Source: a virus
Lineage: Duplodnaviria > Caudoviricetes
Strand: one strand, 5' to 3'
Length of the DNA: 64,000 bases
IMG/VR virus record: IMGVR_UViG_2639762784_000001
Span: 1 to 64,000 of that record
Position numbers and translations under genes: made by a program
The notes under the pieces: generated by a model
What the model was told of the DNA's origin: nothing
The model's input: the letters and a program-made list of their open reading frames with translations, nothing else
Database searches by the model: none
Shown: positions 7,364-43,799 of the stretch, in pieces
Numbering within the stretch: position 1 is the stretch's first letter
How the letters are laid out: every line of letters starts with the position of its first letter

Positions 7364-8167
7364 CTACCGCACCCCCTCCTTCCGAGGCCAAGCCGCAGAC
7401 GCATCGCGCACTAGCTCAGACACGAGCTCCACGCGGTCACCCGGGATAACGCGGATCGTCACCTCGAGTGCGTCACCTGTACGCCCTGATCTTCCTACCA
7501 GCGTCATCTCCATGACAGGCATGGATGCGGCGATCTCCAGAAGCTGCGCTTCCTCCTCGGAAGGCATGCGCGTCCTCACGGTCTCGATCCAGGAGAGCGG
7601 GCCGTGGCCGGCCTCCTCCAAGCGGTCGAGATATCCGCCTGGCCCTGTCGACTTCTCGCCGATCCGCGGGGCGTCTTCAACCGCCTGCGGGCTCAACCAT
7701 GTGTCGACGATCTGGAACGGCGGCTCCTCTTCGGGCGACATGATCCGTCGTCGCCGCAGAACTTCACTGCTCGGTTCGACCGAGAACATCTCTGCAACCC
7801 GGTCGGGCGCCGGCTCGTATGACCGCCTGGGTGTGCCGTGCGTCTGCCATGCCTCGTCCGGGTAGCTGGCGGCAGGGAAGACGTACATGCCGGCGGTGCT
7901 ACGGGTGACGACTTGGCTTCTGGTGATGCGGCGCCGCTCGGTGCGGGCCTGCACGACCGTCCCCTTGCGCGGTGCGCTCCGGACGATCCCTTCCGAAGCC
8001 AGCTGGTTCAACGCCGCCCGCACGGTCTGGCGCGCGAGCTTGTAGGTGTCCATCAGCTCGGTGATGGGCGGCAACGTACTTCCGGGCGGGTATTCACCCC
8101 CCTCGATCCGACCCCGCAGGAGCTCCGCGAGCTCCCGGTAGGTCTTTGGACCATCTTCGATCGGCAT
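7364..8167 (-). CDS. GntR-family repressor with UTRA domain (KorA/TraR-like transfer regulator)
   Basis: YRELAELLRGRIEGGEYPPGSTLPPITEL..RQTVRAALNQLASEG..KGTVV; divergent from the tra operon. Confidence 0.9.
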   Translation of the reverse strand: MPIEDGPKTYRELAELLRGRIEGGEYPPGSTLPPITELMDTYKLARQTVRAALNQLASEGIVRSAPRKGTVVQARTERRRITRSQVVTRSTAGMYVFPAASYPDEAWQTHGTPRRSYEPAPDRVAEMFSVEPSSEVLRRRRIMSPEEEPPFQIVDTWLSPQAVEDAPRIGEKSTGPGGYLDRLEEAGHGPLSWIETVRTRMPSEEEAQLLEIAASMPVMEMTLVGRSGRTGDALEVTIRVIPGDRVELVSELVRDASAAWPRKEGVR

Positions 8168-8199
8168 TGATGCCTCCTGTCGTGTGACTGCATTACACA

Positions 8200-8245
8200 C
8201 TCTGGGCTAGCCTATTGACAAGTAGGGCTAGCCCAGAGATATGGT
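8200..8245. promoter_or_regulatory. Operator inverted repeat enclosing a TTGACA -35 element
   Basis: CTCTGGGCTAGCC (8200-8212) / GGCTAGCCCAGAG (8226-8238) flank TTGACA (8215-8220); TATGGT at 8240. Confidence 0.75.
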
Positions 8246-8353
8246 GTGTCTAGTCAATCACGACAGGTCTTAGCACGCAGAACGGCCCCCGGTGCTTCAC
8301 CACCGGGAGCCGCGTGTGTAGACCAGCCCGCCTGTCCCCAGGAGGCACGATCC

Positions 8354-8656
8354 ATGAACAGGATCGCACAGCCCGCACCCGCCAGTACCCCGAACACCTC
8401 CCAGGCCGATGAGGCCCTGCGTCGCGTCACCGCCGCGCAGATCGGCCCGCGCCGGCCGGGCACCGTCTACTACGACGGCCCCCGCCTCGTCGAGGTCCGC
8501 GCCGTCGTCATCGACCTCTCCGAGGCCCGCCGGATCCTACGCCGCAACGCCGCCCGGTTCGCCGTCCTCGTCCGCGACGTCCACGCCGGCACCGAGCACT
8601 ACACCGGCGCCATCTGGACCGGCACCGACCGCGTCATCAAGGCGGTGGCCGCGTGA
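8354..8656 (+). CDS. Hypothetical protein, first gene of the transfer operon
   Basis: GGAGG RBS; strongly GC-biased third positions. Confidence 0.7.
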   Translation: MNRIAQPAPASTPNTSQADEALRRVTAAQIGPRRPGTVYYDGPRLVEVRAVVIDLSEARRILRRNAARFAVLVRDVHAGTEHYTGAIWTGTDRVIKAVAA

Positions 8657-8868
8657 AGCAGCCCGCCCTCGAGGCCATCCCGTCCGGCGAATACTCCCCG
8701 GCCGCCGTCGCCCAGAACGACCCCCACCTCTACGCCGACGTCACCGACCTGTTCCTCCTCGTCGACCCGCTCTCCTACCTCGACGACGTCCTCACCTCCC
8801 TGGAGCCGGACGCCGCAGCCGCCGCCTACGAGCAGCTGGTCACCGGCGAATGGGACGGAAACCTGTGA
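8653..8868 (+). CDS. Small acidic hypothetical protein
   Basis: GTGA and TGATG overlaps with both neighbours. Confidence 0.65.
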   Translation: MKQPALEAIPSGEYSPAAVAQNDPHLYADVTDLFLLVDPLSYLDDVLTSLEPDAAAAAYEQLVTGEWDGNL

Positions 8869-9341
8869 TGGACGCACCCTCCGAACTCGCCGACGCCCTC
8901 GAGGACTTCCACGGCTTCGCCTGGATCCCCGGCCTGGCCAAAATCCTCGACGGTCTCGCCGACATGGACACCGCGATCCGCGCCGGCCACATGAGCACCG
9001 ACGCCACCCAGACCCTCCTGACGATCCTCGGCAACCCCAGCGTCCCCGACCTGCCCCACCTCCTGGCCGTCACCGTCCAGACCCTCACCGGACCCGACAA
9101 CCCCACCCTCCACCACCTGCCCGACGACATCCGCAAGAACCTCCAGCACCTCGGCGAACTCCACGCCTTCGAGACCGCCGAATACATCCCCCGCGACCAC
9201 ACCAACGAAGCCGCCGCCCTCATTACCGAGAACCGCCTGCACACCCGGGGGGAGGTGCCGGCCATGACCGAGGAGCAGAGGAAGGAGCTCAGCCGCAAGA
9301 ACGCCGAGAAGAACAAGCAGTCCATCAACCGCCCCCGCTAA
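8868..9341 (+). CDS. Hypothetical protein
   Basis: Translationally coupled ATG; codon bias. Confidence 0.65.
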   Translation: MDAPSELADALEDFHGFAWIPGLAKILDGLADMDTAIRAGHMSTDATQTLLTILGNPSVPDLPHLLAVTVQTLTGPDNPTLHHLPDDIRKNLQHLGELHAFETAEYIPRDHTNEAAALITENRLHTRGEVPAMTEEQRKELSRKNAEKNKQSINRPR

Positions 9342-9413
9342 CCCCCGTCCGGGGCCCGGACCGATCCCGGCCGGGCCCCACCCCGCCACCGACCAGGAAG
9401 GACACCAACCGCC

Positions 9414-9620
9414 GTGCCCGAGCAGCCCCAGCCCCGCGAGTACTTCTTCCTCCTCACCATCGCCACCAGGGCCGGTACCGCCACGGTCCACGGCTTCACC
9501 TCCTTGGCCCCGGGGACCACCCGGCACCAGGCCTTCACCGCGCTCGCCAACCAGTACTTCCCGCAGGCCATGCCGACCCCCACCGTCCTCGCCTTCGACC
9601 TCCGGCCCAACCAGCTCTGA
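9414..9620 (+). CDS. Small hypothetical protein
   Basis: AGGAAGGA RBS; codon bias. Confidence 0.6.
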   Translation: MPEQPQPREYFFLLTIATRAGTATVHGFTSLAPGTTRHQAFTALANQYFPQAMPTPTVLAFDLRPNQL

Positions 9621-9769
9621 CCCCCCCCGACCGGGGCCAGGCTCCCCCCCCCACCGGGCCCCACCCTCTGGCCTCGCCGGAGGCCGTACCGGCGAAAACC
9701 CCCACGCCGGTACGGCACCCAGCAAGTCCAGCGACACCCCCACCCGACACACCACCCGGAAGGACCACC

Positions 9770-10075
9770 GTGCACAAGGCCACCATCACCCAGGCAGGCA
9801 TCCTCGCCCCCTTCGCCGTCCTCGCCGCCGGCCTCGGCAAGCAGATCGCCGACCACGGCGCCAGCACCACGGCAGTCATCTCCGTCGTCGCCTTCACCCT
9901 CACCACCGGCCTGTACTTCGCCGCCCAGGTCGGCCAGGCCATGCGCACCACCCTCTACAACTGCCCCACCAAGGGCTGCACCGTCTCCATCCGCGCCCGC
10001 AACACCAGCCCCACCGAACTCGACCGGCTCCGGACCCTCGCCACCGACCACGCCAAGCACGGGACCACGCGATGA
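9770..10075 (+). CDS. Small two-TM membrane protein with CxxxxC..H tail (spread-like)
   Basis: Two hydrophobic segments; RBS GAAGGA. Confidence 0.65.
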   Translation: MHKATITQAGILAPFAVLAAGLGKQIADHGASTTAVISVVAFTLTTGLYFAAQVGQAMRTTLYNCPTKGCTVSIRARNTSPTELDRLRTLATDHAKHGTTR

Positions 10076-10275
10076 CCGGCAGCGAGTTCCGCCAGACCCA
10101 CGGCGACCCCGCCCAGTGGGACAACCGCGAGTACGAGGCCTACTTCGCCCTCACCGCACAGCCGGCCACCCGCGACTGCTGGTTCTGTACCGCCCCCAAC
10201 CCGGCCACCGCCACCCGCTGCGGCTTCTGCAACCACCACACCGACGACAACCCCAACCACCAGCCCGCCGCCTGA
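10072..10275 (+). CDS. Small Zn-ribbon protein
   Basis: CWFC..N..RCGFC. Confidence 0.6.
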   Translation: MTGSEFRQTHGDPAQWDNREYEAYFALTAQPATRDCWFCTAPNPATATRCGFCNHHTDDNPNHQPAA

Positions 10276-10300: not shown

Positions 10301-11479
10301 GTGAACACCACCCCGGCCGGCAACGAGCCGCACCGCCCCACCGAGGACGGCCCCCTCGCGCCCACCGCGCCGGGGCAGCCCCTCGCCGAACAGGAGGCCA
10401 AGCGCAAGCTGTCCGGCGGACAGATCGCCGTCCTCACCGTCGCCACCCTCATCATGGCCGCCGTCGGCATCGGCGGCGCCATCGGCACCTACGCCAACGC
10501 CAACGCCGAACTGAAGCGCTCCGAAACCGCCCTCGGCATCGTCGCCGCCGGCGAAGGCGCCACCCTCGTCGCCGCCCTCGTCATGGTCGGCGTCACCATG
10601 CTCGGCCAGGCCGCCCCCCTCATCGCCCGCGCCGCCCTGTGGGTCCTCCCCGCGGCCGCCGCCGTCATGGGCCTCGCCATCGCCCCCACCCCCCGCGAAG
10701 CCGTCATCTACGCCCTCACCCCGCTCGCCATGACCGCCTCCGCCGAAGGCATCAGCTTCCTCGCCCGCCGGATCGTCGTACACCGCACCGGCACCGACAC
10801 CGAGGCCCAACGCCGCAACGCAGAGATCATGCGGCAGATCGCCTTCCACGCGGCTCAGGCCGAACGGCACCCCGAGGAGAAGGTCCGCCAGGCGTCGGCT
10901 CTCACCGCGTGGAAGCTCATGCGCCGCGTCGGAGACGGCGACGCACAGCTCGGCTCAGGGCTCATCGCCGTCCAGCGTGAGCGGTTCACCGACGGCGCCA
11001 ACTCGGCTCTGCTGTCCATGCTCACCGGCACCCCTGAGCCCGCCCCGGCTCACCCCGCCCTCCCGGCCATCGAGTCGGGTGAGTCGACCGGTGAGCCGAC
11101 CGGCAGCACCGTGATCCTCAGCCAGCGGCCTGAGCCCGTCGGCTCGGCTCACACTCCGGCACTGCCCGACGCCCGCACGATCATTCAGCCCTCTGACCAG
11201 GTGATCCGTCGTGAGCCGGTCTTGAGCCAGGGTGAGCCCGCTCTCGCCAAGACCGTCCAGGCCGCCGCTGAGACGGCCGCCGGTGAGCCGGGCGAGACGG
11301 ATCAGAGCACCGACGAGAAGGAGCAGCAGATTGCTGAGCTGGCTCACCGGCTCAAGTCCGGTGAGCGGCTCACCAAGAACACGGCGGCTCAGCTCCTCGG
11401 TGTGAGCCCGGCGACCGCGGGCCGTCGGCTCAAGGACGCCCGGGACCGGATCAGCGACGGAACGGGGATGTACCTGTGA
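10301..11479 (+). CDS. SpdB-like spread protein (4 TM, P/E-rich linker, C-terminal HTH)
   Basis: N-terminal hydrophobic helices; LTKNTAAQLLGVSPATAGRRL HTH; position within the tra operon. Confidence 0.75.
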   Translation: MNTTPAGNEPHRPTEDGPLAPTAPGQPLAEQEAKRKLSGGQIAVLTVATLIMAAVGIGGAIGTYANANAELKRSETALGIVAAGEGATLVAALVMVGVTMLGQAAPLIARAALWVLPAAAAVMGLAIAPTPREAVIYALTPLAMTASAEGISFLARRIVVHRTGTDTEAQRRNAEIMRQIAFHAAQAERHPEEKVRQASALTAWKLMRRVGDGDAQLGSGLIAVQRERFTDGANSALLSMLTGTPEPAPAHPALPAIESGESTGEPTGSTVILSQRPEPVGSAHTPALPDARTIIQPSDQVIRREPVLSQGEPALAKTVQAAAETAAGEPGETDQSTDEKEQQIAELAHRLKSGERLTKNTAAQLLGVSPATAGRRLKDARDRISDGTGMYL

Positions 11480-11973
11480 CCGCCACCCGCACCCCCGGCC
11501 GTGAGCCGCGGACGGTCCCCCCGTCCGCGGTACCGGCCCGCCCCGCACCCGCCCGGTCGGCGACCGCCCCCGCGACCCCGGCCGCCCCGCCCTGGACCCA
11601 CCGCCTCCTCCCGGCCGCGCTCCGCAACGCGATGACCGACCTCGGCTGGTGGCAGAACCCCACCCCGCAGAAGCCCTCCGCCCACCTGAAGCAGGTCCTC
11701 GACACGCTCCACCGGTACGGCTGGTGCCAGTCCCTGGACGTGTCCCCCACCGGCCGGATGTGCATCCGCGGCGCCCAGAACCTCCTCGAGAAGACCGGCC
11801 ACGTCACCCCCGCCGCACGCGAGCGGGCCGTCGCCTACATGCAGCAAACCCTGAACGAGGCCGGCATCCAGATGAGCTTCTTCACCTGGAACGACCTCCC
11901 CGGCCAAACCCCGGCCACCGTCGAAACCCTGCTGGTCAAGGCCGCCTACAAGGCCCGAGCGAACGGAGAATAA
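11476..11973 (+). CDS. DUF6197-like protein
   Basis: LHRYGWCQ..GRMCIRGA..WNDLPGQT motif. Confidence 0.7.
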   Translation: MTATRTPGREPRTVPPSAVPARPAPARSATAPATPAAPPWTHRLLPAALRNAMTDLGWWQNPTPQKPSAHLKQVLDTLHRYGWCQSLDVSPTGRMCIRGAQNLLEKTGHVTPAARERAVAYMQQTLNEAGIQMSFFTWNDLPGQTPATVETLLVKAAYKARANGE

Positions 11974-11976
11974 GCA

Positions 11977-12564
11977 ATGCACAACAGCCCCGAATTCCAC
12001 GACCCGGAATTCAACGACGTCATCACCGGCGGATACGCCGACCCGCACCCCTACGGCATTCCCGCGCAGCCGGTGAAGACCGGCCTGACCCCCCGCGGAA
12101 AGGCCGCCCTCGGCATCGGCGGCGCATTCCTCGCCTGCGGCAGCCTGTTCGGCTGGCAGCACTACGCCGCACAGCAGGCGGAAGCCGAGCAGAAGGCGCA
12201 GGAAATCGCCCTCAAGCAGCAGGAACTGCGCCTCGAGGAAATCCGCGAACTGAACAAGGCGACCGCCGCCCAGATGGAGACCCAGGCCGCCGTCGACACT
12301 GCCCGGCAGAAGCAGATCGACGCCTGCGTCAACGACAACAAGGGCCTGATCGGCAAGCAGCTCGGCGCCTCCTACCGGTCGGTGGTGGAGGACTGCCAGA
12401 CCCAGTACCCGGCCACCCTCGGCAGCGACATGCAGGCCGCCGCCACCACCACCGGCACGGGCGACGACGGCGGGGTGAACCCCGGCGCCCTCCTCGGGGC
12501 CGGCGTCCTCGGTCTCGGTCTCGCCGTCGCCGTCCGAAAGAGCACCAAGAGTCACCCTGCGTAG
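11977..12564 (+). CDS. Membrane protein with coiled coil (spread-like)
   Basis: TM - Q/E/A coiled coil - two Cys - C-terminal TM. Confidence 0.7.
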   Translation: MHNSPEFHDPEFNDVITGGYADPHPYGIPAQPVKTGLTPRGKAALGIGGAFLACGSLFGWQHYAAQQAEAEQKAQEIALKQQELRLEEIRELNKATAAQMETQAAVDTARQKQIDACVNDNKGLIGKQLGASYRSVVEDCQTQYPATLGSDMQAAATTTGTGDDGGVNPGALLGAGVLGLGLAVAVRKSTKSHPA

Positions 12565-12681
12565 TTCTTACTACCGGTCGGCACCCCGGAAAGACCCGCC
12601 CACACCCCGCAATAGAGCCCCCGACCAGGGGCTCACCCCCAACGAGATCAGTAGTAGTAACTACCGAAAGTGAGGAGCAAG

Positions 12682-14646
12682 ATGGCGAGCGACACGGCCC
12701 CCGCGGCCGTCCCCGGCCCCCACGCCCCGCCCCCCAGCACCGCGCCCACCACCCCCAGCAACGGGCAGCAGCAGGGCGGGATCGCCGGGCTGCTCGCCCC
12801 CGTCGGACCCGCCCGCGCCGACTTCAACCTCGACCCCGCCACCGGCCCGGCCGACACCCCGGAGCAGGCCGCCACCGGAGTCACCAGCGACACCTACCAA
12901 CTCGAGGAAGCCGCCCCCGAAAAGAACTCCGGGACCACCCGCAACGGCGGCGGCACGCCGAAGGAAGGCGTCGTCAAGGCGTGGCTGCGGGCCGGCGCCG
13001 AACGCTGGCGGAAAGGCGGCGACGCCCGCCTCAAGCGCCTCGACATCCAGAAGGCAAAGGCCCAGGCGCGGCAGGTCAAGGAAACCGTGACCGTGAACCG
13101 CTCCGAGAAAATGGCCGGCGGGTCCACGAATTCCAGTACCGGCAGCAAGAACAACGCCGCCGGGAAATCCCTGAACAGTAAGTCCAACGGGGCCGGAAAC
13201 AGCGGCGGCACGGGGCCGAAGAACCGAGGGGCGGGCGGCACCAACAATTCCGGTGGCGGCCAGTCCGGCAGCACCGGCCGTAGCGGGGCGGGCGGCCAGA
13301 CCGGCGGCGGCAGCCGCGGCAGCAACACCGGGACGAAGACCAGCGGCGACTCCCGGCGCACCAGCACGGGCCCCGGCAAGGACTCCACCGGTGGACGCGG
13401 CGCAGGCAAGGACAGCGGCTCCGTGAAGCAGCCCGGCGGCGGCAGCAGCACCGGGCCGAAGAACGACACGAAGCCGACCGGGCCGGGGCCGAAGACCAGC
13501 GGGAGCAGCGGGGGAGGCACCGGCAAGTCCGGGACGGCCGGCACGCAGGACCCGGCCGGGAAGCCGGGCAAGGACGCCCCCAGCCCCAAGACCTCCAGCA
13601 CGGCCAAGGACACCAGCAAGCAGGCCAAGACCGGCCCGGCCCCCGACACCGGCAAGAACACCCCGACCGGCAAGGAGAACCGGCCCACGGGCCCCGAGGC
13701 GAAGGACGCCGGGTCCACGGGCGGCACGGGCAAGGTCAGCCTCGACAAGACCGGCCGCAAGAACGACAAGACGACCGACGGCACGGGTACGCCCGACAAA
13801 GACCCCAAGACGCCGCAGGACGGCGGCACCGGCACGCAGAAGACACCGCACGGCGACAAGGACACCGAGCCCCGCAAGCAGCCCGGCCCGCGCGTGCCCG
13901 CCCAGCGCATCAACCTCCAGAACTCTCGGGAGGCCGGCTACCGCGACGGCACCCGCGCCGCCAAAACCGTCGCCCACATGCACGCCTGGCGCGACGGCGC
14001 CCGCGACGGCTACGCCGACACCACCCAGGTCGCCGCCCGCGAGAAGACCCGCCTCGATGAGGCCCACGCCCAGCGCAAGCAAGCCCGCACCCACCCCGAG
14101 GACCAGCCCGTGACCGCACCCGCCTCCAGCGCCGACTACCAGACGGTGCCGCCCAAGCCCGACCACGCCCCCGGACCCCAGCCCGTCCCCGTCACCAGCA
14201 CCGACGCCACCCACGTCCACCTCGGTGCCGGCGCCGCCCGCGACCGCATCAGCCGCGGCGAGGTCCGCACCCTCCGCCAGTTCCAGCAGCGCCTCGAGAC
14301 CAAGGCCGACACCATGACCCGCGTCGGCGACGCCACCCGCGTCCTCGAGCAGCACGCCCAAGAGCAGGCCAAGCAGATCACCCAGCTCCTCGAGCAGGCC
14401 CGCGGCATCGCAGGCGGCGACAAACTCGTCACCGCGCTCACCAAGCTCGCCGACCACGCCCAGGTCCAGGTCGGCAAGGCCGGCGAGATCCGCACCCGCG
14501 CCGCCCGCGCCGCAGAAGCCTGCAAGGCCCTGACCGCCAACACCGACACCCGCTACGGCGGCATCTACCAGGCCGTCGTCGACTCGCCCGAGACCAGCCC
14601 CGCCGAAATGGCCTACTACCGGAACATGGAGACCGCCGGTGCCTGA
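12682..14646 (+). CDS. Transfer-region protein with long G/S/T/K/P disordered linker and helical C-terminal domain
   Basis: GAGGAG RBS; low-complexity middle; coupled to the next gene. Confidence 0.75.
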   Translation: MASDTAPAAVPGPHAPPPSTAPTTPSNGQQQGGIAGLLAPVGPARADFNLDPATGPADTPEQAATGVTSDTYQLEEAAPEKNSGTTRNGGGTPKEGVVKAWLRAGAERWRKGGDARLKRLDIQKAKAQARQVKETVTVNRSEKMAGGSTNSSTGSKNNAAGKSLNSKSNGAGNSGGTGPKNRGAGGTNNSGGGQSGSTGRSGAGGQTGGGSRGSNTGTKTSGDSRRTSTGPGKDSTGGRGAGKDSGSVKQPGGGSSTGPKNDTKPTGPGPKTSGSSGGGTGKSGTAGTQDPAGKPGKDAPSPKTSSTAKDTSKQAKTGPAPDTGKNTPTGKENRPTGPEAKDAGSTGGTGKVSLDKTGRKNDKTTDGTGTPDKDPKTPQDGGTGTQKTPHGDKDTEPRKQPGPRVPAQRINLQNSREAGYRDGTRAAKTVAHMHAWRDGARDGYADTTQVAAREKTRLDEAHAQRKQARTHPEDQPVTAPASSADYQTVPPKPDHAPGPQPVPVTSTDATHVHLGAGAARDRISRGEVRTLRQFQQRLETKADTMTRVGDATRVLEQHAQEQAKQITQLLEQARGIAGGDKLVTALTKLADHAQVQVGKAGEIRTRAARAAEACKALTANTDTRYGGIYQAVVDSPETSPAEMAYYRNMETAGA

Positions 14647-34527: not shown

Positions 34528-34537
34528 GAGAGCCGAC

Positions 34538-35473: not shown

Positions 35474-36573
35474 GCGTCGCGCCACCGGCCAGGGTCCTCA
35501 CCCGGCACGCTCTCACCGGTGCCTGGCTGTCGACCGCGCTACCGGTCACGGATCTGGAGTACGGGCCGGAAGTGTCCGGGCCCGGCGAACTGCGCGGCAC
35601 CCTCTCCCCGCGGCTGGTCGCCTCCCATCCGACACTGGCCGACCCGGGCACCACGGAAATCTATGTGGAGGCCGAGGACCAGCTGGAGTGGGGCGGCCTG
35701 ATCTGGGACGTCCGCGCACAGGGCAACAACTACACGATCGAGGCCGCGTCCTGGTCGTCGTACCTGCAGAAGCGTTTCGACCTGGACGGGGAGCACGGAG
35801 CCCGCGGCCCCTACGTGTATACAGACCGCTGCCAGGTCATCCGCAACATTTGGGCGTACGCGCAGTCCGTCCCCGACGGCGACATAGGCGTGGTCGTCGA
35901 CTCCACCACCAGCACCTCTACGGTCGGCACACCGGCCGACGTCCACCACTCCTACTGGTACGACACCAAGAGCCTCGGGGACCAGGTCGACGAGCTTGTC
36001 TCCGACCAGGGGACCCCCGAATACACGTGCACCACGTCCTGGAACCCCGACAAGAGCGACGTCGTGAAGCGGATCCGGCTGGGCTGGCCGCGTCTCGGTG
36101 CCCGACGCAGAGACATCGAATTCTCGTCCGGCGTGAACATCATCGAGGAGCCCGAGGAAGCCCTAGCCGGGGACGACTACGCGCAGGTCGTCATCGGCAC
36201 CGGCGCGGGCGACGGCAGCGCGAAACTCAGGCAGATCTCCGCCGTCCGCAACGGCCGGCTCCGCCTCGAGGCGGCCGTCGCCTTCCCTGAAGTCAACGGC
36301 ACCGACGTCCTCAAACAGCGGGTGGAGTGGGAACGCGCGTGGCGGCAGACCCTGGGCGCGGTCGAGACGGTCACGATCCGCGACACCCCCGCCGCACCGT
36401 TCGGGTCGTGGCAGGTGGGTGACGACGTGTACGTCCGCATCCACAACGCCTGGACCAGCTACACCGGCTGGTGCCGGGTCACCGGCTGGACCATCAAGCC
36501 CACCGCGCCCGGCGGCCCGCAAGCACAGGTCTCCCTGAAACCGTCCGCAATGTACACCTACGGAGGTCAGTAA
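35470..36573 (+). CDS. Minor tail (hub/Tal-like) protein
   Basis: WGGLIW, GAGDG, WQVGDDV; synteny. Confidence 0.7.
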   Translation: MSVAPPARVLTRHALTGAWLSTALPVTDLEYGPEVSGPGELRGTLSPRLVASHPTLADPGTTEIYVEAEDQLEWGGLIWDVRAQGNNYTIEAASWSSYLQKRFDLDGEHGARGPYVYTDRCQVIRNIWAYAQSVPDGDIGVVVDSTTSTSTVGTPADVHHSYWYDTKSLGDQVDELVSDQGTPEYTCTTSWNPDKSDVVKRIRLGWPRLGARRRDIEFSSGVNIIEEPEEALAGDDYAQVVIGTGAGDGSAKLRQISAVRNGRLRLEAAVAFPEVNGTDVLKQRVEWERAWRQTLGAVETVTIRDTPAAPFGSWQVGDDVYVRIHNAWTSYTGWCRVTGWTIKPTAPGGPQAQVSLKPSAMYTYGGQ

Positions 36574-38057
36574 TGGACATCGGGCGGAAACTCGCCGAAC
36601 TCGAGGCGCGCCTGAACCGGGTGGAGGGCTCCCCACGCCTCTCCCATGCCGCACTCGACAACGCCAACATCGTCATCAAGGACGATGCCGGGCAGGTGCG
36701 GGGCCGGATCGGGATGCAGGACGACGGCACCATCGGCCTGATCGCCGTGGACGGGCCCGCACCCGGCGCCCCGAACACGCCCGTGGTCACCTCCACCATC
36801 GGCGGCCTACGGATCGTGTGGGACGGCACCCTCGCCTCCGGCCTGGCCCTGCCCGCCGACTTCGCTCACGTCGCCGTCCACGTCTCCACCACCGCCGACT
36901 TCACCCCATCAGCGGGCACCTACGTCGGCACCATCACCAAGGCCGGAGACGGCGGCATGCTGCCCGTCCTACCCCTGCCGTACGTGCCGCACTACGTCCG
37001 CCTCACCGCAGTCAACACCTCCGGCGTAGCGGGGGACCCATCGCAGGAGACCACCGCGACCCCCATCAAGGTCGACGGCCCGGACCTCCAGGCCGGATCG
37101 GTCACCGCCACCACCATCGAAGCTGGCGCCGTCACCGCGGAGAAACTGGAGGCGGTCCTCCAACTCGTCACCCGCCTGGTAGCCGGCGACCCGGCCGGCG
37201 CCCGCGTGGAACTCAACGAGGACGGGCTACGCGTCTACAACAGCCTGGGTGGGCTGGTGATCCAGTTCAACTCCGCCGACGGTTCCGCCGCCTTCACCGG
37301 CGCCATCACTGGTAGCACCGTCACCGGCGGACTCATCCAGACCGCCACCAGCGGTGAACGGATCGCCATCAACGAGTCCGGGAACAACCGAATCCTGGTT
37401 TACGACAGCGCCAACAAGGCGGTCGCGTCACTCACCCCCGGCGGTATCGGCCTGGCAGGTCCCACTGGGAACGCCATGTCCATCAGCCCTGCGACCACCT
37501 ATCCGTCCATCCGATGGCTGAACGCCGCCCAGGACAAAACTGCGCGTATCCAGGTCCTCACCTCGGCGGCCGGGGACCTCAACCTGCAACTCCAGAACAG
37601 CATCGGCCACTCCCTGTACCTGCTGGAGAACCGTATCTACGTCGGTGGCACCACCCTGCAAGTGCTGCCCGCCGCCAGCGCCTCCAGCGGCTTCTACCTG
37701 GAGGCCGAGACCGGCCACACCGGGCACCTGTTCCGCCTGGTCCGTGACGGCGACAAGTTCACCGTCGACAAGGACGGCAACACGACCACCCCCGGCAGCC
37801 TGACCGCCGGGAACATCACCACAGGCCGCATCTCGATCACCCCTAGTGCCGCAAACGCGCCCACCTCCGCCAGCGTCAGCGGCCTGAACATCAAGGGCAG
37901 CACGATCCGGGTCGTGGCCACCCCCTCCACCTCCGTCCCCGGCACCTCGGTTCTCGGGGTCGGCGTCACCAACGTCACCACCACAGGTTTCACCGTATGG
38001 CTGACCCGCACCAACACTGCCTCCACCGGAATCGACTGGATAGCGATCGGATCATGA
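36573..38057 (+). CDS. Tail fibre/central tail protein
   Basis: FN3-like IVWDG..YVRL; GAVTAEKL repeat; C-terminal TGFTV..WIAIG lectin-like end. Confidence 0.75.
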   Translation: MDIGRKLAELEARLNRVEGSPRLSHAALDNANIVIKDDAGQVRGRIGMQDDGTIGLIAVDGPAPGAPNTPVVTSTIGGLRIVWDGTLASGLALPADFAHVAVHVSTTADFTPSAGTYVGTITKAGDGGMLPVLPLPYVPHYVRLTAVNTSGVAGDPSQETTATPIKVDGPDLQAGSVTATTIEAGAVTAEKLEAVLQLVTRLVAGDPAGARVELNEDGLRVYNSLGGLVIQFNSADGSAAFTGAITGSTVTGGLIQTATSGERIAINESGNNRILVYDSANKAVASLTPGGIGLAGPTGNAMSISPATTYPSIRWLNAAQDKTARIQVLTSAAGDLNLQLQNSIGHSLYLLENRIYVGGTTLQVLPAASASSGFYLEAETGHTGHLFRLVRDGDKFTVDKDGNTTTPGSLTAGNITTGRISITPSAANAPTSASVSGLNIKGSTIRVVATPSTSVPGTSVLGVGVTNVTTTGFTVWLTRTNTASTGIDWIAIGS

Positions 38058-38422
38058 CCACAGAGGCCGAACCCACGCCCGAGTCCGAGCCCAACCCCAT
38101 CGAGCCCACCCCGCTGCCTGAGGAGCCGCCCCCTCCACCGCCGGACGAGGTGCCGCCGCCGCCTGCCCCGGAGCCGCCGCCCGCTCCCGACATGCCCACC
38201 ACGCCGATCACCTTTGAGCCGGCCACCTACTACGAGGTCGACTCCGTCTGCCTGACTGCGGACAGGGGTGATGGCGAGCCGTGCCGCAATCTAAACGTGA
38301 CCGCGACGGATCCGATGGTGTACTCCAACGCTGGGAAGCCGATCATTTTCTGCGGCGTGTGCTCCAAGTACCGGACCATCCTGTCCGCGACCAAGCTGGA
38401 CCCGCAGCCCGAGGTGTCGTAA
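38054..38422 (+). CDS. Pro-rich small protein with Cys motifs
   Basis: Coupled start; C..C..CGVC. Confidence 0.6.
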   Translation: MTTEAEPTPESEPNPIEPTPLPEEPPPPPPDEVPPPPAPEPPPAPDMPTTPITFEPATYYEVDSVCLTADRGDGEPCRNLNVTATDPMVYSNAGKPIIFCGVCSKYRTILSATKLDPQPEVS

Positions 38423-38594
38423 CCCGCTGTCGGCCCGGAGCCGGGCGGGGGCAACGTCTGCCCCGCCCGGCCCGTAGCCTGACCACAGGGCGACCCTCCG
38501 CCCCCTCTGCTCCAGCCCCCGAGGGACGGCCGCACGCAGTGGCCCGCCACAGCATCATCAGCTCTGGGCGCGGGGAGATCCAGGAGCACGGGCA

Positions 38595-38978
38595 ATGCCC
38601 GATCCGATCACACAACAGGACGAGCAGACGGCTGCCCGGAAGAAGACCGCTCCCGCCCCGGAGCCCTCCCCGGCCCCCAGCCCCGACACCACCGTCGTCG
38701 ACACGGCACGGTACGAGCCGTACCCCGGCGCCGCGTTCTTCCACGGCGGCCGACACTCACCCCTCTTCGCGGCGATGGCCCGACGCCTCGATGCCGAAGG
38801 CTGCACCGACGGCCGCCACCTCGGACCGGACTGGACGACCGCCCACCGCGACGCGTTCGCCACCTGGCAGCGCACCCTGCGCCCCAAGGAGGGCGGCGAC
38901 GTGTCCGGCATCCCCGACCAGGTCGCCTGGGACCGACTCCACGTCCCGCGCATCACACCCCTTCCCAAGGAGACCTGA
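38595..38978 (+). CDS. Stand-alone peptidoglycan-binding domain protein
   Basis: YEPYPGAAFF..GPDWT..WQR..GIP..WDRLHVP. Confidence 0.75.
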   Translation: MPDPITQQDEQTAARKKTAPAPEPSPAPSPDTTVVDTARYEPYPGAAFFHGGRHSPLFAAMARRLDAEGCTDGRHLGPDWTTAHRDAFATWQRTLRPKEGGDVSGIPDQVAWDRLHVPRITPLPKET

Positions 38979-38979
38979 G

Positions 38980-39957
38980 ATGGCCACCCCGCTGTCCGCC
39001 ACAAAGCTTCTCGCCGTACTCAAGGCCGAGGGCTGCAAGGTTGTCGAGTACCGGTCTTGGCGTACCCACAACCGCAACTCCAAGGGCGCCTGGGGTCCCG
39101 TCAACGGTGTCATGATCCACCACACCGTTTCATCAGGCGAAGACTCATCCGTCGCGCTCTGCTACAACGGGCACACCCTCCTGCCCGGACCGCTCTGCCA
39201 CACCGTCGGGGGCAAGTCCGGAAAGCTGTACATGGTCTCCGCAGGCCGCGCCAACCACGCCGGCTCCGGCGACGGCGACGTACTGCGCGCCGTCATCAAC
39301 GAAACCGCACTGCCCGCAGACAACCAGGCCAACACCGACGGGAACTCCCGCTTCTACGGCCTGGAGATCGTCAACCTCGGCAACGGCAAGGACACCTACC
39401 CCGCCACCCAGTACGACGCCGCAGTCCGGTGGGCCGCCGCGATCTGCCGCGCCCACGGCTGGGGCGCCGCATCGGTCATCGGCCATAAGGAGTGGCAGCC
39501 CGGAAAGATCGACCCCCACGGGCCTGTCGAGGGCCGCGGCCCCTTCAACATGACCGCCTTCCGCCGCGACGTCGCCGAACGGCTGAAGAACGCGGCCTCC
39601 TGGAGCTCCGGCTCCACCCCGAGCACGCCCGACACCGCGGAGGACCCCATGGCAGGGATGACCAAGCAGGACATCTACGAAGCGGTGTGGAGGACGGACG
39701 CCATCACCGCGCCCGCCACGGCCACAGACCGCGCCACGAACAAGACATGGGAGCCGCAGTCTTACCTCAAGGACATCGGCAACCGGGTCAGGTCGATGGA
39801 CAGCCGTCTCGCCGCCCAGTCCGCCGCGATCACCGAGCTGACGAGGACCGTCACCCAACTCGCCACCAACAGCGAGTCCCTCGACGCCGACGCGCTCGTC
39901 CACCGCATCGAGCAGGCCATCGAAGCCATCGACATCCGCCTCGAAGTCACCAGCTGA
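38980..39957 (+). CDS. Endolysin, N-acetylmuramoyl-L-alanine amidase
   Basis: VMIHHT, RANHAG, YGLEI, VIGHKEW..KIDP (Amidase_2 motifs). Confidence 0.9.
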   Translation: MATPLSATKLLAVLKAEGCKVVEYRSWRTHNRNSKGAWGPVNGVMIHHTVSSGEDSSVALCYNGHTLLPGPLCHTVGGKSGKLYMVSAGRANHAGSGDGDVLRAVINETALPADNQANTDGNSRFYGLEIVNLGNGKDTYPATQYDAAVRWAAAICRAHGWGAASVIGHKEWQPGKIDPHGPVEGRGPFNMTAFRRDVAERLKNAASWSSGSTPSTPDTAEDPMAGMTKQDIYEAVWRTDAITAPATATDRATNKTWEPQSYLKDIGNRVRSMDSRLAAQSAAITELTRTVTQLATNSESLDADALVHRIEQAIEAIDIRLEVTS

Positions 39958-39984: not shown

Positions 39985-40365
39985 ATGAGACTCATTGCCC
40001 GCGAACCCGCCCTGCTCCTGGGCCTCATCGCCGCCGGCGTCAAGCTCCTCGGCTACGAACTCGACGTGTCCGCCGGAGTCCAGACCGCCATCAACGCCAT
40101 CGCCGCCGGTGTCGTCGCCGTCATCATCGCGTTCGTCGCGAAGAACGGCGCCTGGGCTGCCGCGGTTCTCCAGACCGCGCAGGCCGTCATGGCTTTGTTC
40201 GTCGGCCTGGGGCTCGACTGGTCCGCCGGCCGGCAGGCCCTGTGGATGGCGTCCATCGCCGCAGTGCTGGCTGTCGTGGAGCGGTTCATGGTCACCCCGC
40301 CGCTGGCGACCACCGGCCTCGAGCAGTCCAGCCCGCTCGCCAAGCGCGGCCCGACCGCGGTCTGA
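39985..40365 (+). CDS. Holin-like membrane protein
   Basis: Four TMs, REPA N-terminus, follows the endolysin. Confidence 0.7.
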   Translation: MRLIAREPALLLGLIAAGVKLLGYELDVSAGVQTAINAIAAGVVAVIIAFVAKNGAWAAAVLQTAQAVMALFVGLGLDWSAGRQALWMASIAAVLAVVERFMVTPPLATTGLEQSSPLAKRGPTAV

Positions 40366-40432: not shown

Positions 40433-40777
40433 GTGGCACCGGTGAATGAGCTGTCGGCCGTGAGCGTCCTTCTGCCGGGCGGGGCCGGGGCCATCGTGAC
40501 TCTCATCGTGCTGCTCATCCTCCGAGGCAGTCTTGTCGCGCGGGCCGTCCTCGAGGACGTCCGCAAGGACCGTGACGACCGCGTCGCCGAGCTGGCCAAG
40601 GAGCGGGATGCGTGGCGGGAGGCGCATCGGCAGAGCGAAGCCGCACGAATCGATGCACAGAACCAGGTCGGTGAACTCCTCGAACTGTCGCGGATCGCCG
40701 ATCACGTTCTTCGCGCTATGAGAGGGGAGGTGCCTGGGGATGCGATGGATCAGCCGGTTGCTGCGCCGCCGTCCTGA
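40433..40777 (+). CDS. Single-TM coiled-coil lysis-cassette protein
   Basis: TM followed by ERDAWREA coil. Confidence 0.65.
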   Translation: MAPVNELSAVSVLLPGGAGAIVTLIVLLILRGSLVARAVLEDVRKDRDDRVAELAKERDAWREAHRQSEAARIDAQNQVGELLELSRIADHVLRAMRGEVPGDAMDQPVAAPPS

Positions 40778-40985
40778 GCCCGCCCCGCAGCGCCCGAAGT
40801 CCACAGGCAAGCCGTCCGGGCAGCGGGAAGCGGAGCTGGCTCTCTCCCGCGCCCGGGAGGCCCGCCGGCAGGTCGAGGCATACCGTCCGGCCGTCGCGCG
40901 GGTCGCCGCGCGTCTCGCGCGTGAGCGTCAACAGAACCATTTCGCGGAGCTGTTTCGGTCCGCCTTGGAGGGAGGTCAGCGCTGA
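40740..40985 (+). CDS. Small basic lysis-cassette protein
   Basis: RQQNHFAEL motif typical of actinophage lysis regions. Confidence 0.6.
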   Translation: MRWISRLLRRRPEPAPQRPKSTGKPSGQREAELALSRAREARRQVEAYRPAVARVAARLARERQQNHFAELFRSALEGGQR

Positions 40986-41338
40986 TGAACTGGGCGCAGC
41001 TCGCAAACACGGCAGCATCGGGTCTGGTCGCCCTGGCCAGCATGCTCTTTGCTGTCGTCTACCACCTGCACGCACCGTGGCGGTCCACCGCGGTGGGCCG
41101 GCACCTGATGGGCTTCACCCTCGCAATAGGAGCGCTGGGCGCCTACACCGTGGCGATCACGATGTGGCCGGAGGGGGCTCCTGCCTCGGTGCTGCGAACG
41201 ATCCGCACCGCGCTGATGGTGGTCATCGCCGCTCTGGTGGTGCAGCGAATCCACATGGTGATCACCGCCCAGCACCGTGGGGCGCTCCTCGACGCCCACC
41301 CCCCTCACGATCAGCCCGGTCCGCCGCCTTCTGCCTGA
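40985..41338 (+). CDS. Three-TM holin-like protein
   Basis: PWRSTAVGRHLM motif; hydrophobic segments. Confidence 0.65.
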   Translation: MNWAQLANTAASGLVALASMLFAVVYHLHAPWRSTAVGRHLMGFTLAIGALGAYTVAITMWPEGAPASVLRTIRTALMVVIAALVVQRIHMVITAQHRGALLDAHPPHDQPGPPPSA

Positions 41339-41354
41339 ACTGGAGTACACGCAC

Positions 41355-43799
41355 ATGACCATGGTGAACGGCACGCTCCTGGGGGGCGGCGATTCGCGGC
41401 GGGTGGAGATGCGGGCCGCGCTAGTCGATGTGACCGGCGCCCCTGCGGTCGGCTATGTGCCCTCCCTGGAGGGAGAGCTGGTGCGCCCGGTGCCGATCAC
41501 CCCCGACCAGGGTGGGGACTGGTCGGCGGACCTCACCCCGAACAGCCTGATCGAGTCGACGTCCGGGGACACCCTGTGGGCGGTGCAGGAGGGCCGCACC
41601 CTGTCCGGTGTTCCGATCATCACCCACATTCTGGTGCCCGAGGCCGGCCAGTGGTGGGTGGGGCAGCTGCGGGTCGACCTGGCAGACACACAGACCGGTC
41701 AGGGCAGCATCGTCTACGTGCCTGGCGAAGCCGGACCACAGGGGGCACAGGGCCCGGCCGGGCCGGCCGGTACCGACGGCCAGGACGGCACCCCCGGAGC
41801 CCCGGGCGCAGACGGTGAGGACGGGGCATCCGCCTACGAGGTGGCCGTCACGAGCGGGTTCACCGGCACACAGACGCAATGGCTGGCCTCCCTCGTCGGC
41901 CCCCAGGGCGAGCCGGGCGAGCAGGGCGAGCAGGGTCCGCCCGGCGCTGACGGTTCCAACGCGGACGCGGAGGCCTACACCGACACCGCCATGACCGCCG
42001 AAGTGGCGCGCGCGGATGCCGCCTACGAGCCGGCTGGGACCGCGACGGCCGCCGTTTTTGCCCACACCAGCGCGACCGACCCGCACGGGGACCGCGCATG
42101 GGCCGACAACAAGTTCGCCACCCTCACCGCCCTCGGCACCCTCAACGCCACCGTCACCGACCTCGGCGGCGCCGTCACCAACCTCGACGGATTCGTGCAG
42201 GACTGCCTCACCCGGGTCGCCGGAATCGAGCAGGGAACCGCCTGGCTGTCCGCCCTCAACGTCGCCGGGAACGCTCAGATATCCGGTGGGGACCTGACCG
42301 TGTACGACACGTCCAAGGGCTACCGGCTCCGCCGCGGGGGCGCCGACCTGGACCTTGAAGGCACCGGCGCCGACCTCGTCACCAGCGTGTGGTCCGGGAC
42401 CGCGTTCAACGGCACCCAGCACTCCTACGACCGGTACTCCGCAAGCTCCCTGAATGTGCAGCATGCCGGGAAACGCGAGTTCGTGGACGGCCTGTACGGC
42501 GCCGCCCGGCACGTCCTGGACCCCGACAGTGACCGCATCGGCTTCTTCGGCGCCGACCCGGCCGGCCAGCAACAGGTCACCGGAGCCTCACAAGGGGAGA
42601 CGGTGGCGTCTCTGACGGAGGCGCTCGCCGCCTACGGGCTCGTCGTGAACGTGGCCGCCCCCGCGGCGAAGGGCGTGTACGTGCCGAACGGGTGGGGGGA
42701 GCACTGGCGGGCCGCCCGCGACACCGCCAGCGCCACCCCCGCACGAATCGTCACCCTCGGAGGCAGTGCGACGCAGGGCATGTATGCCTCCAACCCGATC
42801 ACCCACTCGTGGCCGGGCCTGGTCCGTACCGCCCTCCAGGCCCAGTACGGGGACGGCGGCTCCGGATATCACACGACGAGTCTGTCCTCGACCGTCCTCG
42901 CCTCGGGAGATGCCGCGGCGCTCGCCGCATGGACGACTGCCGGTGCGATCGTCGGGCAGAGTGGCACCTGGTCCCTGTCCGCGAACCGGTACGGGCCGGG
43001 TATCACCGGCGTGTACACCGACGTGACCGGCTCCACCATGACGTTCACGGTCCGCGGCACCACCGTGAAGATCTACACCATCAGCGGCGGCACCCGCCCG
43101 CCTTTCACCTACGCCATCGACGGCGGCACGGCAGAGACTGTGACCGTGCCCGGCGGAACCGCCGCCGTGCAGGTCACCACCATCACCGACCTCACCCCAG
43201 GCACCCATACAGTGGTCCTCACCTGCGGCACGACCACCACCGGCCAATACCTGACCGTCGCCGGAGCCGCCGGGGAGAACGCCAGCGGAGTCATCGTCGA
43301 CAACCTGGCCCGCGCGGGCGCCGGCTCCGGTTCCTACGCGACGCTGCCGGAGTCGGCGCTGAACGCCACATGGAACGGCGGCATCAACTACCCGGCCAGC
43401 CTGGCCATCTACACGGCCGGACCCAACGACGCATCCAGCGATGTCGCCCCCGACGTGTGGGTGGACAACGTGGCCGCCTGGCTGCGCGGCGTACGAGACC
43501 TGGGCACCTCACAGGGCGCCACGGACATCATCCTCGGCATGCCCCACCTCGGTCGGCACACCACCGCGAACTACCGATACGCGGAGTACGCGGCGCGGCT
43601 GCGCTCGCTGGCGGCGTCGTACAACGCTGCGGTGGTCGACTGGTGGGAGATGGGCCGCAACAGCTGGCCGTACTGGTCCACGCTCGGGTATTGGGGCACG
43701 AACGCGGGCACCGGCGGGGCCGGGACGGACAGCGTGCATCTGTCGAATGCAGGGTTCGCCGCGATGGCCTCCCCGGTCATCGACCTGCTGAAGGCCTGA
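41355..43799 (+). CDS. Collagen-repeat fibre-like protein with C-terminal SGNH/GDSL-like domain
   Basis: GxY repeats; GASAYEVAV..GFTGT..WLASL; LGGSATQG, GPND, DSVHLS blocks. Confidence 0.75.
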   Translation: MTMVNGTLLGGGDSRRVEMRAALVDVTGAPAVGYVPSLEGELVRPVPITPDQGGDWSADLTPNSLIESTSGDTLWAVQEGRTLSGVPIITHILVPEAGQWWVGQLRVDLADTQTGQGSIVYVPGEAGPQGAQGPAGPAGTDGQDGTPGAPGADGEDGASAYEVAVTSGFTGTQTQWLASLVGPQGEPGEQGEQGPPGADGSNADAEAYTDTAMTAEVARADAAYEPAGTATAAVFAHTSATDPHGDRAWADNKFATLTALGTLNATVTDLGGAVTNLDGFVQDCLTRVAGIEQGTAWLSALNVAGNAQISGGDLTVYDTSKGYRLRRGGADLDLEGTGADLVTSVWSGTAFNGTQHSYDRYSASSLNVQHAGKREFVDGLYGAARHVLDPDSDRIGFFGADPAGQQQVTGASQGETVASLTEALAAYGLVVNVAAPAAKGVYVPNGWGEHWRAARDTASATPARIVTLGGSATQGMYASNPITHSWPGLVRTALQAQYGDGGSGYHTTSLSSTVLASGDAAALAAWTTAGAIVGQSGTWSLSANRYGPGITGVYTDVTGSTMTFTVRGTTVKIYTISGGTRPPFTYAIDGGTAETVTVPGGTAAVQVTTITDLTPGTHTVVLTCGTTTTGQYLTVAGAAGENASGVIVDNLARAGAGSGSYATLPESALNATWNGGINYPASLAIYTAGPNDASSDVAPDVWVDNVAAWLRGVRDLGTSQGATDIILGMPHLGRHTTANYRYAEYAARLRSLAASYNAAVVDWWEMGRNSWPYWSTLGYWGTNAGTGGAGTDSVHLSNAGFAAMASPVIDLLKA

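Follow-up and report, generated by a model that had tools for sequence, protein, structure and literature searches.

A putative TraB-like transfer operon beside the virion genes of a Streptomyces plasmid-prophage, and the exchangeable cassettes that occupy its position in related plasmids

Regulator, transfer operon and virion block

The stretch of DNA analysed here, hereafter the window, comprises positions 1 to 64,000 of the IMG/VR virus record IMGVR_UViG_2639762784_000001 and corresponds to the first 64 kb of C50, a contig of 85,284 bp with a G+C content of 69.9%, as against 71.9% for the whole draft genome (7.5 Mb, 89 contigs). Its central part holds a GntR-type regulator, a divergent operon that ends in an FtsK-like ATPase and, directly behind this ATPase and on the same strand, a set of virion and lysis genes, and it is the relationship between these parts that is addressed below. 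Genes were called via third-position G+C, after which the open reading frames (ORFs) were scanned against Pfam, PHROGs and NCBIfam. Between 8354 and 43799 all convincing genes lie on the plus strand, and the minus-strand ORFs inside the virion block, with a second-position GC of 0.59-0.83, are read as shadows of plus-strand genes.

The regulator (7364-8200, minus strand) is of the HutC type, with a GntR domain (Pfam, 1.3e-18) followed by UTRA (8.2e-15) and a match to PHROG 10724 (2.8e-82), and its start is likely the in-frame ATG at 8167, which is preceded by AGGAGG. The 184-bp divergent region between the regulator and the plus-strand operon contains a perfect 13-bp inverted repeat (8200-8212 and 8226-8238) flanking TTGACA, found by sequence inspection and considered a candidate operator and promoter of the operon; no further exact copies of this repeat occur elsewhere in the window, and a scan for promoter and terminator consensus sequences was uninformative. 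The GntR/UTRA domain plan is one that we take to be that of the KorA/TraR/KorSA repressors of Streptomyces plasmids, and regulator and palindrome together fit a kil-kor-like control of the operon through a predicted operator. The two domains, the divergent orientation and the candidate operator and promoter agree with the KorA-like GntR repressor of the preliminary description. The same regulator position is filled in pSLE1, CP108822, pCQ4 and pZL12.

The operon opens with six small ORFs of 100, 71, 158, 68, 101 and 67 amino acids (aa), called from third-position G+C (8354-10275, plus strand); that at 8865-9341 has no family match in Pfam, PHROGs or NCBIfam, and that at 9770-10075 has two hydrophobic segments, membrane segments being defined throughout as stretches of 19 residues with a Kyte-Doolittle score of at least 1.6. 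These are followed on the plus strand by a 392-aa protein (10301-11479) with three N-terminal membrane segments by hydropathy, a helix-turn-helix (HTH)-like C-terminal end and a match to PHROG 16651, of unknown function (2.1e-53), and by a 165-aa DUF6197 protein (11476-11973; Pfam DUF6197, 4.8e-19). Three proteins then precede the ATPase on the same strand, namely a 195-aa protein with one C-terminal hydrophobic segment by hydropathy (11977-12564), a 658-aa protein with a low-complexity centre rich in Gly, Ser, Thr and Lys and a helical C-terminus (12670-14646), and a 127-aa protein (14639-15022), the last two having no family match in Pfam, PHROGs or NCBIfam. As shown below, these three are conserved partners of the ATPase.

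The ATPase itself (15092-17383, plus strand; 763 aa) was assigned to the FtsK/TcpA/TraB-like group by profiles, a structural model and Foldseek. Its best NCBIfam match is plasmid_TraB (NF041214; E 1.3e-09, 37.2 bits, residues 336-534), a family with a curated cut-off of 800 bits to which TraB of pCQ4, used as a positive control, scored 847.7 bits. It also matches the FtsK/SpoIIIE-like family of PHROGs (5.5e-09), HerA_C and AAA_22 in Pfam at sub-threshold level only and, by sequence, TcpA and HerA in the Protein Data Bank (PDB; E ~0.01), while BLASTP aligns 231 of its residues with pCQ4 TraB at 23% identity (E 1e-04), the two Walker motifs, A and B, being in register. An AlphaFold2 model built from 38 homologues (mean pLDDT 75.1, core 80-94) predicts helices at the N-terminus (12-144), followed by small alpha/beta domains (170-345) and a RecA-like core (~360-650), with a disordered acidic linker leading to a winged helix (690-756), the latter made up of helices 690-701, 714-721 and 725-737 and strands 741-756 with pLDDT mostly 80-91. 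When this model was compared with the PDB by Foldseek, TcpA (6o1w, 3.4e-13) came first, followed by the FtsK motor on double-stranded DNA (6t8o, 2ius; 3.8e-11) and then by EccC and HerA, the TcpA and FtsK matches having target-normalised TM-scores of 0.54-0.59 at 16-19% sequence identity. Among the matches listed, four of 120 ATPase homologues add an FtsK_gamma domain, and one homologue is named an ArsR-family DNA-binding protein by its source.

The Walker A motif of the ATPase reads GVTGSGKGG (residues 397-405) instead of GxxGxGK[ST], so that the Mg-binding hydroxyl is missing; in the four other cassette types, which are treated below, the lysine is followed by Ser or Thr (GKS or GKT). About 140 positions are invariant in the ATPase family, K403 and the Walker B residues D487 and E488 among them, which indicates purifying selection and not decay. 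By its modelled architecture the protein is an FtsK-fold, TraB-like motor, but it fails the TraB family score test. Accordingly, the TraB-like translocase proposed earlier holds with respect to the FtsK-type motor fold, the C-terminal winged helix and Walker B, whereas neither the family score nor a canonical Walker A is found.

Between the stop codon of the ATPase and the ATG at 17728 lies a spacer of 344 bp by coordinates (17384-17727; earlier given as 345 bp), with the genes on its two sides on the same strand, as had been described. It contains three GC-rich hairpins (17402-17431, 17489-17530 and 17575-17622) and is likely the end of the operon; it is also a possible candidate for a packaging site.

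The virion genes that follow, all on the plus strand, begin with a small-terminase-like protein (TerS; 17728-18249), assigned by its position, by 36.5% identity to pZL12.68c and by PHROG 645 (1.2e-12), with no Pfam match and no meaningful PDB relative. Next come TerL (18176-19837; Pfam Terminase_6N 1.2e-11 and Terminase_6C 1.6e-04, 60% identity to pZL12.67c), the portal (19895-21793; PHROG 64 9.9e-16, 71% identity to pZL12.66c), a scaffold (21856-22581; Pfam Phage_scaffold 6.1e-06), a lambda-D-like head decoration protein (22624-23097; Pfam HDPD 3.1e-07) and a lambda-E-type major capsid protein (23116-24165; Pfam Phage_cap_E 5.1e-25, 53% with pZL12). Head-tail connector and completion genes (24165-27670), recognised from collinear matches to pZL12.62c-55c, include a DUF6093 gene (26329-26796; Pfam 3.1e-17) and a gene (26793-27197) whose ortholog carries the name 'HK97 gp10 family' in both pSLE1 and CP108822. 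The tail genes comprise the tail tube (27800-28270; Pfam Phage_TTP_16 7.3e-40), a 1451-aa protein of tape-measure size and position (29283-33638; 55% identity to pZL12.51c, with orthologs in two relatives named tape measure), two ORFs in the chaperone position between these (within 27800-33638) and four proteins in the tail-tip/baseplate position (33481-38057; 64-71% identity to pZL12.50c-48c and 41% to 47c, no Pfam match). An amidase (within 38281-39957; Pfam Amidase_2 3e-20), three small holin-like membrane ORFs (39985-40365, 40433-40777 and 40985-41338, with three, one and three segments by hydropathy) and an 840-aa protein, possibly a fibre or an envelope-degrading protein (41277-43799; Pfam Collagen 6.7e-10, Lipase_GDSL_2 2.7e-07, CE2_N 1.1e-06), complete the block. 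Among the scanned ORFs no tail sheath family turned up and no prohead protease was recognised. From these assignments the virion block is of siphovirus type, with terminase, portal, capsid, tail tube and tape measure and without a sheath, and the Pfam and PHROG matches from 17728 to 43799 agree with the earlier statement that an uninterrupted head-tail-lysis module follows TerS on the plus strand.

With regard to the terminase gene, the TerL match is split in two in several relatives (H87, H88, H99, H102 and H109; L053, 10777-13287), where a homing endonuclease of the HNH or LAGLIDADG kind is annotated within the match or next to it, and the terminase ORF of pCQ4 has 836 aa; TerL of the window is uninterrupted.

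Related plasmids and the slot between GntR and TerS

When the 203 ORFs of C50 were compared with pZL12 (GQ919031) by tblastn, collinear matches were obtained from TerS through the tail and lysis genes, as well as for the recombinase, ParA, ParB and the single-stranded DNA-binding protein (SSB; 63%), with identities of 36-82%. Megablast matched 43 Streptomyces plasmid records, those listed being 85-94 kb long, and 34 complete Streptomyces/Kitasatospora plasmids carry a TerL at least 57.8% identical to that of the window, all but one of them measuring 84.8-94.1 kb; against phage records the only megablast match was one of 520 bp to ZL12. One relative, L055 (NZ_CP032230.1, S. seoulensis; 86,882 bp), is recorded as linear, and the other relatives inspected are recorded as circular. 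The preliminary description had named pZL12 as the precedent for this class of element and a proteome comparison with it as a check, and the comparison indeed places C50 collinear with pZL12 and pSLE1 in the virion and partition backbone, the cassette being different from that of pZL12.

C50 is also collinear with the circular 88.6-kb plasmid CP108822.1, through the origin of that record, which fits a circle of about the size of C50. On the other hand, the C50 ends have no terminal overlap, and the C50 start lies within a repeat. Here, bp 1-136 form a 12-bp periodic repeat, corresponding to a repeated tetrapeptide at the C-terminus of a DUF6197 protein whose truncated gene is the first of the window (2-769, minus strand), and the first 300 bp are an inverted copy (91%) of C50 75282-75584; this repeat is probably the cause of the assembly break. 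Counting that at 11476-11973, C50 has three DUF6197 genes. The piece beyond the C50 start is in none of the other contigs of the genome, and no cassette or virion genes were found on those contigs. We consider it likely that C50 represents essentially the whole of a plasmid-prophage of the pZL12/pSLE1 family of Streptomyces.

The position between the GntR regulator and TerS, referred to as the slot, was surveyed by looking for the 34 TerL-positive plasmids among the tblastn matches of three ATPases, and 27 of the 34 slots were classified. The cassette type of the window is the commonest (19 plasmids, including CP075614.1), followed by the pZL12.71c type (three plasmids, 77-90% identity), canonical TraA/TraB (two plasmids, pCQ4, NC_019307, and pCQ3, NC_013449), ATPases of 760-762 aa (two plasmids, of S. 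seoulensis and S. pseudovenezuelae; 26-27% identical to that of the window, E ~1e-20) and a 712-aa ATPase (one plasmid, of S. albidoflavus; related to pZL12.71c at 9e-16 and to TraB at 4e-11). The last three plasmids are those inspected out of the ten that have none of the first three types, and all three have FtsK-like ATPases of 712-762 aa. The pCQ4 proteins pass the NCBIfam cut-offs, TraB with its 847.7 bits and TraA with 111.2 against 80 bits, and the nearest relatives of pCQ4 TraA/TraB are the TraB genes of 10-32-kb plasmids, while pZL12 genes 71c-73c appear, from the notes in the record, to be the published tra genes. In NZ_CP109172.1 a pZL12-type ATPase (17980-20124) is accompanied by a 79-residue remnant (16474-16710), annotated as a GIY-YIG nuclease, that shares 77% identity with the winged helix at the C-terminus of the window ATPase and looks like the scar of a cassette replacement. 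As judged from the encoded proteins, the slot thus holds at least five non-orthologous FtsK-like cassettes, which constitutes a new comparative result, and these findings make a transfer function much likelier than a phage-specific one.

The cassette of the window is moreover encountered apart from the phage. When a single genome of each species was scanned with two peptide-pattern seeds, of which one holds GKGG (a motif thus present in the loci by construction), 47 loci emerged from Streptomyces and Kitasatospora. Of these, 45 have the 658-aa gene directly upstream of the ATPase; the upstream side further includes the 127-aa gene in 41 loci, the 195-aa gene in 37, the DUF6197 gene in 21 and the 392-aa gene in only three. 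On the downstream side, 13 loci have TerS and TerL directly behind the ATPase, 11 have the portal and eight the capsid gene, the flank on this side being shorter than 4 kb in five. Phage_cap_E was absent from all five genomes that were searched throughout for it and that carry the cassette without an adjacent TerL; in these five, the downstream genes are non-viral (an Mrr nuclease, a GH16 protein, a GDSL protein, recombinase-like ORFs and an L,D-transpeptidase). In PLSDB, 137 records contain a relative of the ATPase at E 1e-10, many of them plasmids of 100-490 kb. The cassette of the window is also present on large plasmids and on chromosomes without virion genes, and 372 protein clusters were retrieved for the ATPase. 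On a quick, unfinished, midpoint-rooted ATPase tree, with long branches for L049 and pSLE1 and with L027 (partial) and L052 (distant, partial) left out, virion adjacency is clustered, requiring five changes against a shuffled mean of 15.9 with none of 500 shuffles as low, and no virion adjacency occurs in one clade of 23 rows, of which 16 are Kitasatospora. The existence of the cassette apart from the phage supports a transfer role.

Membrane proteins, motif array and other genes of the window

The spread-like membrane genes that had been proposed for the operon are partly sustained, in that hydrophobic segments occur in the products of 9770-10075 (two), 10301-11479 (three) and 11977-12564 (one), but an SpdB-type profile match is absent from the Pfam scan. 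For the 392-aa protein, Pfam gives HTH matches at residues 332-386 that are sub-threshold, weak and generic. In an Atlas feature search its own cluster contains 16% DUF2637, a second cluster (score 0.93) 91% DUF2637 and a third (0.89) 56% HTH_SpdB_C (PF27079); Pfam shows no match of this protein to DUF2637 or HTH_SpdB_C even at E 10, and its possible likeness to SpdB is treated as a lead only.

The 3' half of the 392-aa gene contains an array of the 7-mer GTGAGCC and its complement (10950-11420), a candidate cis-acting site some 4 kb upstream of the ATPase gene. Of 13 copies counted over 22 kb, ten lie inside 455 bp, six on the plus and four on the minus strand and in several phases, and 15 of the 49 TGAGCC hexamers on C50 fall within a single 500-bp interval; pSLE1 and CP108822 are alike in this respect, and pZL12 is not. 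Clustered 8- to 10-mers are found neither in the 3' end of the ATPase gene nor in the spacer, the array in the 392-aa gene being the sole strong one. In 22 of 48 stretches (the 47 loci and the window) the most clustered 7-mer lies 3.3-5.3 kb upstream of the ATPase start, with a motif that depends on the lineage. Among 17 of these stretches analysed further, picked from the 48 for a top cluster at 3.3-5.3 kb, at least six have nearly all 7-mer copies on one strand and in one phase, and such clusters are probably coding repeats. Lineage-specific 7-mers present on both strands in the 3' half of the membrane/HTH gene are GTGAGCC, TGATGCG, TGCCAGC, GTGAGAC and TGCAACG, and array sites in relatives include L001 8477-9040, L053 4079-4444 and L055 2877-3260.

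TraB recognises a site known as clt, and the array was considered as a clt read by the ATPase. This candidate is weakened by the finding of TGATGCG together with canonical TraB (pCQ4), with the 760-aa type (L055) and with the window's own type (L008, L047), and by a recognition helix of the winged helix that differs among three elements having GTGAGCC in common, in a comparison that leaves out L007, L009, L016, L026, L039 and L047. Our preferred guess, which is held weakly, is that a membrane-anchored DNA-binding spread protein may act on the array within its own gene.

To the left of the regulator, on the minus strand, lie the accessory gene for an N6/N4 DNA methylase (3716-5197) and the gene for a 431-aa HTH protein (5361-6656), a candidate replication initiator that has weak HTH matches only and is 33% identical to the pZL12.82 region along 195 aa; a 23-bp tandem repeat of 3.1 copies within the latter (6046-6118) may represent replication-origin iterons. 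To the right of the virion block the family scan revealed a WYL protein and an AAA_24 ATPase, and further accessory genes encode ThyX (44047-44916, minus strand), a C5 cytosine methylase (53597-55546) and a WhiB-domain protein (55437-57038); a type III polyketide synthase like that reported on pZL12 and pSLE1 is not among the accessory genes of the window. A tyrosine recombinase (47621-48682, plus strand; Pfam Phage_integrase 1.3e-12) is 82.5% identical to pZL12.36c, and 24 bp upstream of it a 33-bp tandem repeat (47527-47597; 2.2 copies, 97% matches) may serve as a recombination or regulatory site. ParA (61811-62578, plus strand; Pfam AAA_31/CbiA, 66% identity to pZL12.17c) and ParB (62578-63726, plus strand; Pfam ParB_N and HTH_ParB, 42% identity to pZL12.16c) agree with the partition genes previously noted in the window. 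The Rep genes noted alongside them amount to candidates, namely the HTH protein at 5361-6656, a second one at 58830-60104 assigned from an HTH match, and DciA (60362-61231).

Interpretation and comparison with known systems

The available information makes it probable that C50 is a plasmid-prophage of the pZL12/pSLE1 family which combines a repressed transfer operon, served by a TraB-like pump, with virion packaging, both transfer and particle formation being predicted from gene content. In the mechanism that we propose, the GntR/UTRA regulator would repress the operon in the kil-kor manner; on its expression, the ATPase would act with its three partners of 195, 658 and 127 aa and with the membrane proteins and would pump the double-stranded plasmid via hyphal contact, as TraB does, thereby allowing spread without killing of the donor. 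The late block would package the same genome into virions through TerL, and the transfer cassette would behave as an exchangeable module. The notion of two double-stranded DNA motors on a single genome, already put forward in the preliminary description, is consistent with the ATPase fold predicted by AlphaFold2 and Foldseek and with the Pfam assignment of TerL, motor activity being a prediction for both. A wider proposal, to which we give somewhat less than even weight, is that the slot may be a swap site for conjugative double-stranded DNA translocase modules at which selection keeps a contact-dependent, non-lytic route whatever the pump; the commonest pump would then operate with a Walker A devoid of Ser/Thr and with three partners, the membrane-anchored HTH protein may tether DNA via the array in its own gene, and relaxase-based typing would miss all of these systems.

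Several observations weigh against a TraB-like transfer system in C50. The 37.2 bits of the ATPase are far under the TraB cut-off of 800, its Walker A reads GKG, with G404 invariant across 38 aligned relatives, and its N-terminal helices peak at a hydropathy of 1.41, under the usual threshold. A tblastn search of the ATPase against 50,697 phage records gave no match, and no site array is tied to it, the array tracking the 392-aa gene and not the translocase type. The only experimental precedent, pZL12, concerns a different cassette, the ATPase being without significant BLASTP similarity to pZL12.71c. In the MOB-suite calls of PLSDB, all 57 TerL-matching records are non-mobilizable, as are 45 of 62 strong ATPase matches, although this typing relies on relaxase-type markers. 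To our knowledge, relaxase and mating-pair profiles cannot see TraB-type systems. As to the formation of particles, pSAM1, whose ATPase is 61% identical, made up less than 0.01% of purified-virion reads in one medium, BM (PMC11302927).

The adjacency of transfer and packaging genes might in principle be an assembly chimera at about 17.5 kb, for which the status of C50 as a draft contig broken within a repeat at its start could be invoked, but no other support for it was found. One blastn high-scoring segment pair of 8,175 bp joins C50 13923-21916, ATPase-TerS junction included, to the complete circular plasmid CP108822.1, the order in pSLE1 is identical, and 13 of the 47 other-species loci are arranged likewise. 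The check for a misassembly at this point, which had been set beforehand, thus found the junction intact in all of these, and since it recurs in complete plasmids a misassembly is excluded, leaving the chimera extremely improbable. A more serious alternative is that one of the two routes is dead, either because the virion genes are left over from a defective prophage or because the deviant Walker A renders the cassette inactive, in which case the element would have no real choice between them. The GKG motif, a prohead protease that was not recognised among the scanned ORFs and the description of pSAM1 as bearing a predicted prophage-like sequence (PMC11302927) are compatible with such a loss. 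However, all virion genes from TerS to lysis are open and collinear with phage ZL12, 34 complete TerL-bearing plasmids are related to C50, the ATPase retains its ~140 invariant positions including K403, D487 and E488, and pSAM1 genes were strongly expressed in HT medium (PMC11302927), so that we regard a dead route as unlikely.

It could also be argued that the ATPase operon is not conjugative and instead serves spore-compartment segregation, phage DNA movement along hyphae, exclusion of incoming DNA, or defence. ATPases with an FtsK or HerA fold are indeed also known from the segregation of chromosomes, from type VII secretion and from anti-phage systems, the Foldseek matches include EccC and SIR2/HerA, PHROGs files its FtsK/SpoIIIE-like family under 'moron, auxiliary metabolic gene and host takeover', and no cis site is linked to the ATPase. 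Against this stand the occupation of the same slot by canonical TraA/TraB in pCQ3 and pCQ4 and by a tra-type gene in pZL12, the best family and structure matches, which are the conjugation proteins plasmid_TraB and TcpA of pCW3, and the wide distribution of the cassette on plasmids without virion genes; a non-conjugative role is consequently considered rather improbable, less so than the chimera but more so than the loss of one route. Transfer by a TraB-like pump next to virion packaging therefore remains the favoured reading.

Should the cassettes work, these plasmids would offer a natural system in which one and the same genome has two ways to spread, one that kills the host and one through hyphal mating, and the cost-benefit question raised for phage-plasmids (PMC12282955) would become testable. 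Pfeifer et al. (2021) sought conjugation with CONJscan relaxase and mating-pair profiles, and Streptomyces is absent from the main text; there is thus a gap in phage-plasmid surveys for relaxase-independent transfer systems. The size of the family has changed as well, since pZL12, called a singleton without close relatives in a mycobacteriophage paper of 2020 (PMC7157519), now has 34 complete plasmid relatives. No comparative account of the transfer slot turned up in a literature search whose coverage left out most subscription journals. The novelty accordingly lies in the comparison, that is, in a swap slot with at least five FtsK-like cassettes in at least 34 complete plasmids and in a cassette that also occurs apart from the phage.

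Among known translocases, TcpA of Clostridium perfringens pCW3 (6o1w) resembles the ATPase in the fold of its motor domain, but it belongs to a firmicute, where it functions as part of a Tcp apparatus of several proteins; the FtsK motor (6t8o, 2ius) shares the fold and acts on chromosomes. TraB of the small Streptomyces plasmids has an FtsK-like motor, a C-terminal winged helix, an N-terminal hydrophobic region and a GntR-type repressor, as does the system of the window, which differs from it in the family score, the deviant Walker A, the three conserved partners and the absence of a site array tied to the ATPase. On the side of the phage-plasmids, pCQ4 and pCQ3 have the backbone of C50 (TerL 60.7% and 63.3%, respectively) and a transfer module in the GntR-to-TerS slot, yet here the slot contains canonical TraA/TraB. 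The cassette type of the window is shared by pSLE1 (S. leeuwenhoekii, LN831788) and pSAM1 (S. ambofaciens, CP012383), in which the genes between GntR and the tail follow one another as in C50 and the ATPase is 48.5% and 61.4% identical, respectively, although nucleotide identity to C50 is only ~75-79% over part of the region in both and the accessory genes differ. pSLE1 has been published as homologous and syntenic to pZL12 (PMC4487206), and the transfer module is not discussed in the available parts of the pSLE1 and pSAM1 papers (PMC4487206; PMC11302927).

The similarity of pZL12 to C50 extends to the size class (90,435 against 85,284 bp), ParA/ParB, the recombinase, SSB and the virion-lysis block, and the plan of the region ahead of TerS is common to both elements: opposite the GntR gene, the operon runs through genes for small and membrane proteins and one for a protein of 650-770 aa, and it ends directly before TerS with a P-loop ATPase of 725-763 aa. 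In contrast, pZL12 gives no tblastn match to anything at 8.2-17.4 kb (E 1e-4), pZL12.71c, 72c and 73c have no significant BLASTP similarity to the 763-, 658- and 392-aa proteins of the window, the two GntR regulators align weakly (E 0.001), and pZL12.71c has a canonical GKT Walker A and matches plasmid_TraB at only 1.7e-04. pZL12 was reportedly described in 2010 by Zhong et al. in J Bacteriol 192:3747. In conclusion, the class has been in print since 2010, and C50 adds to it a member and not a class.

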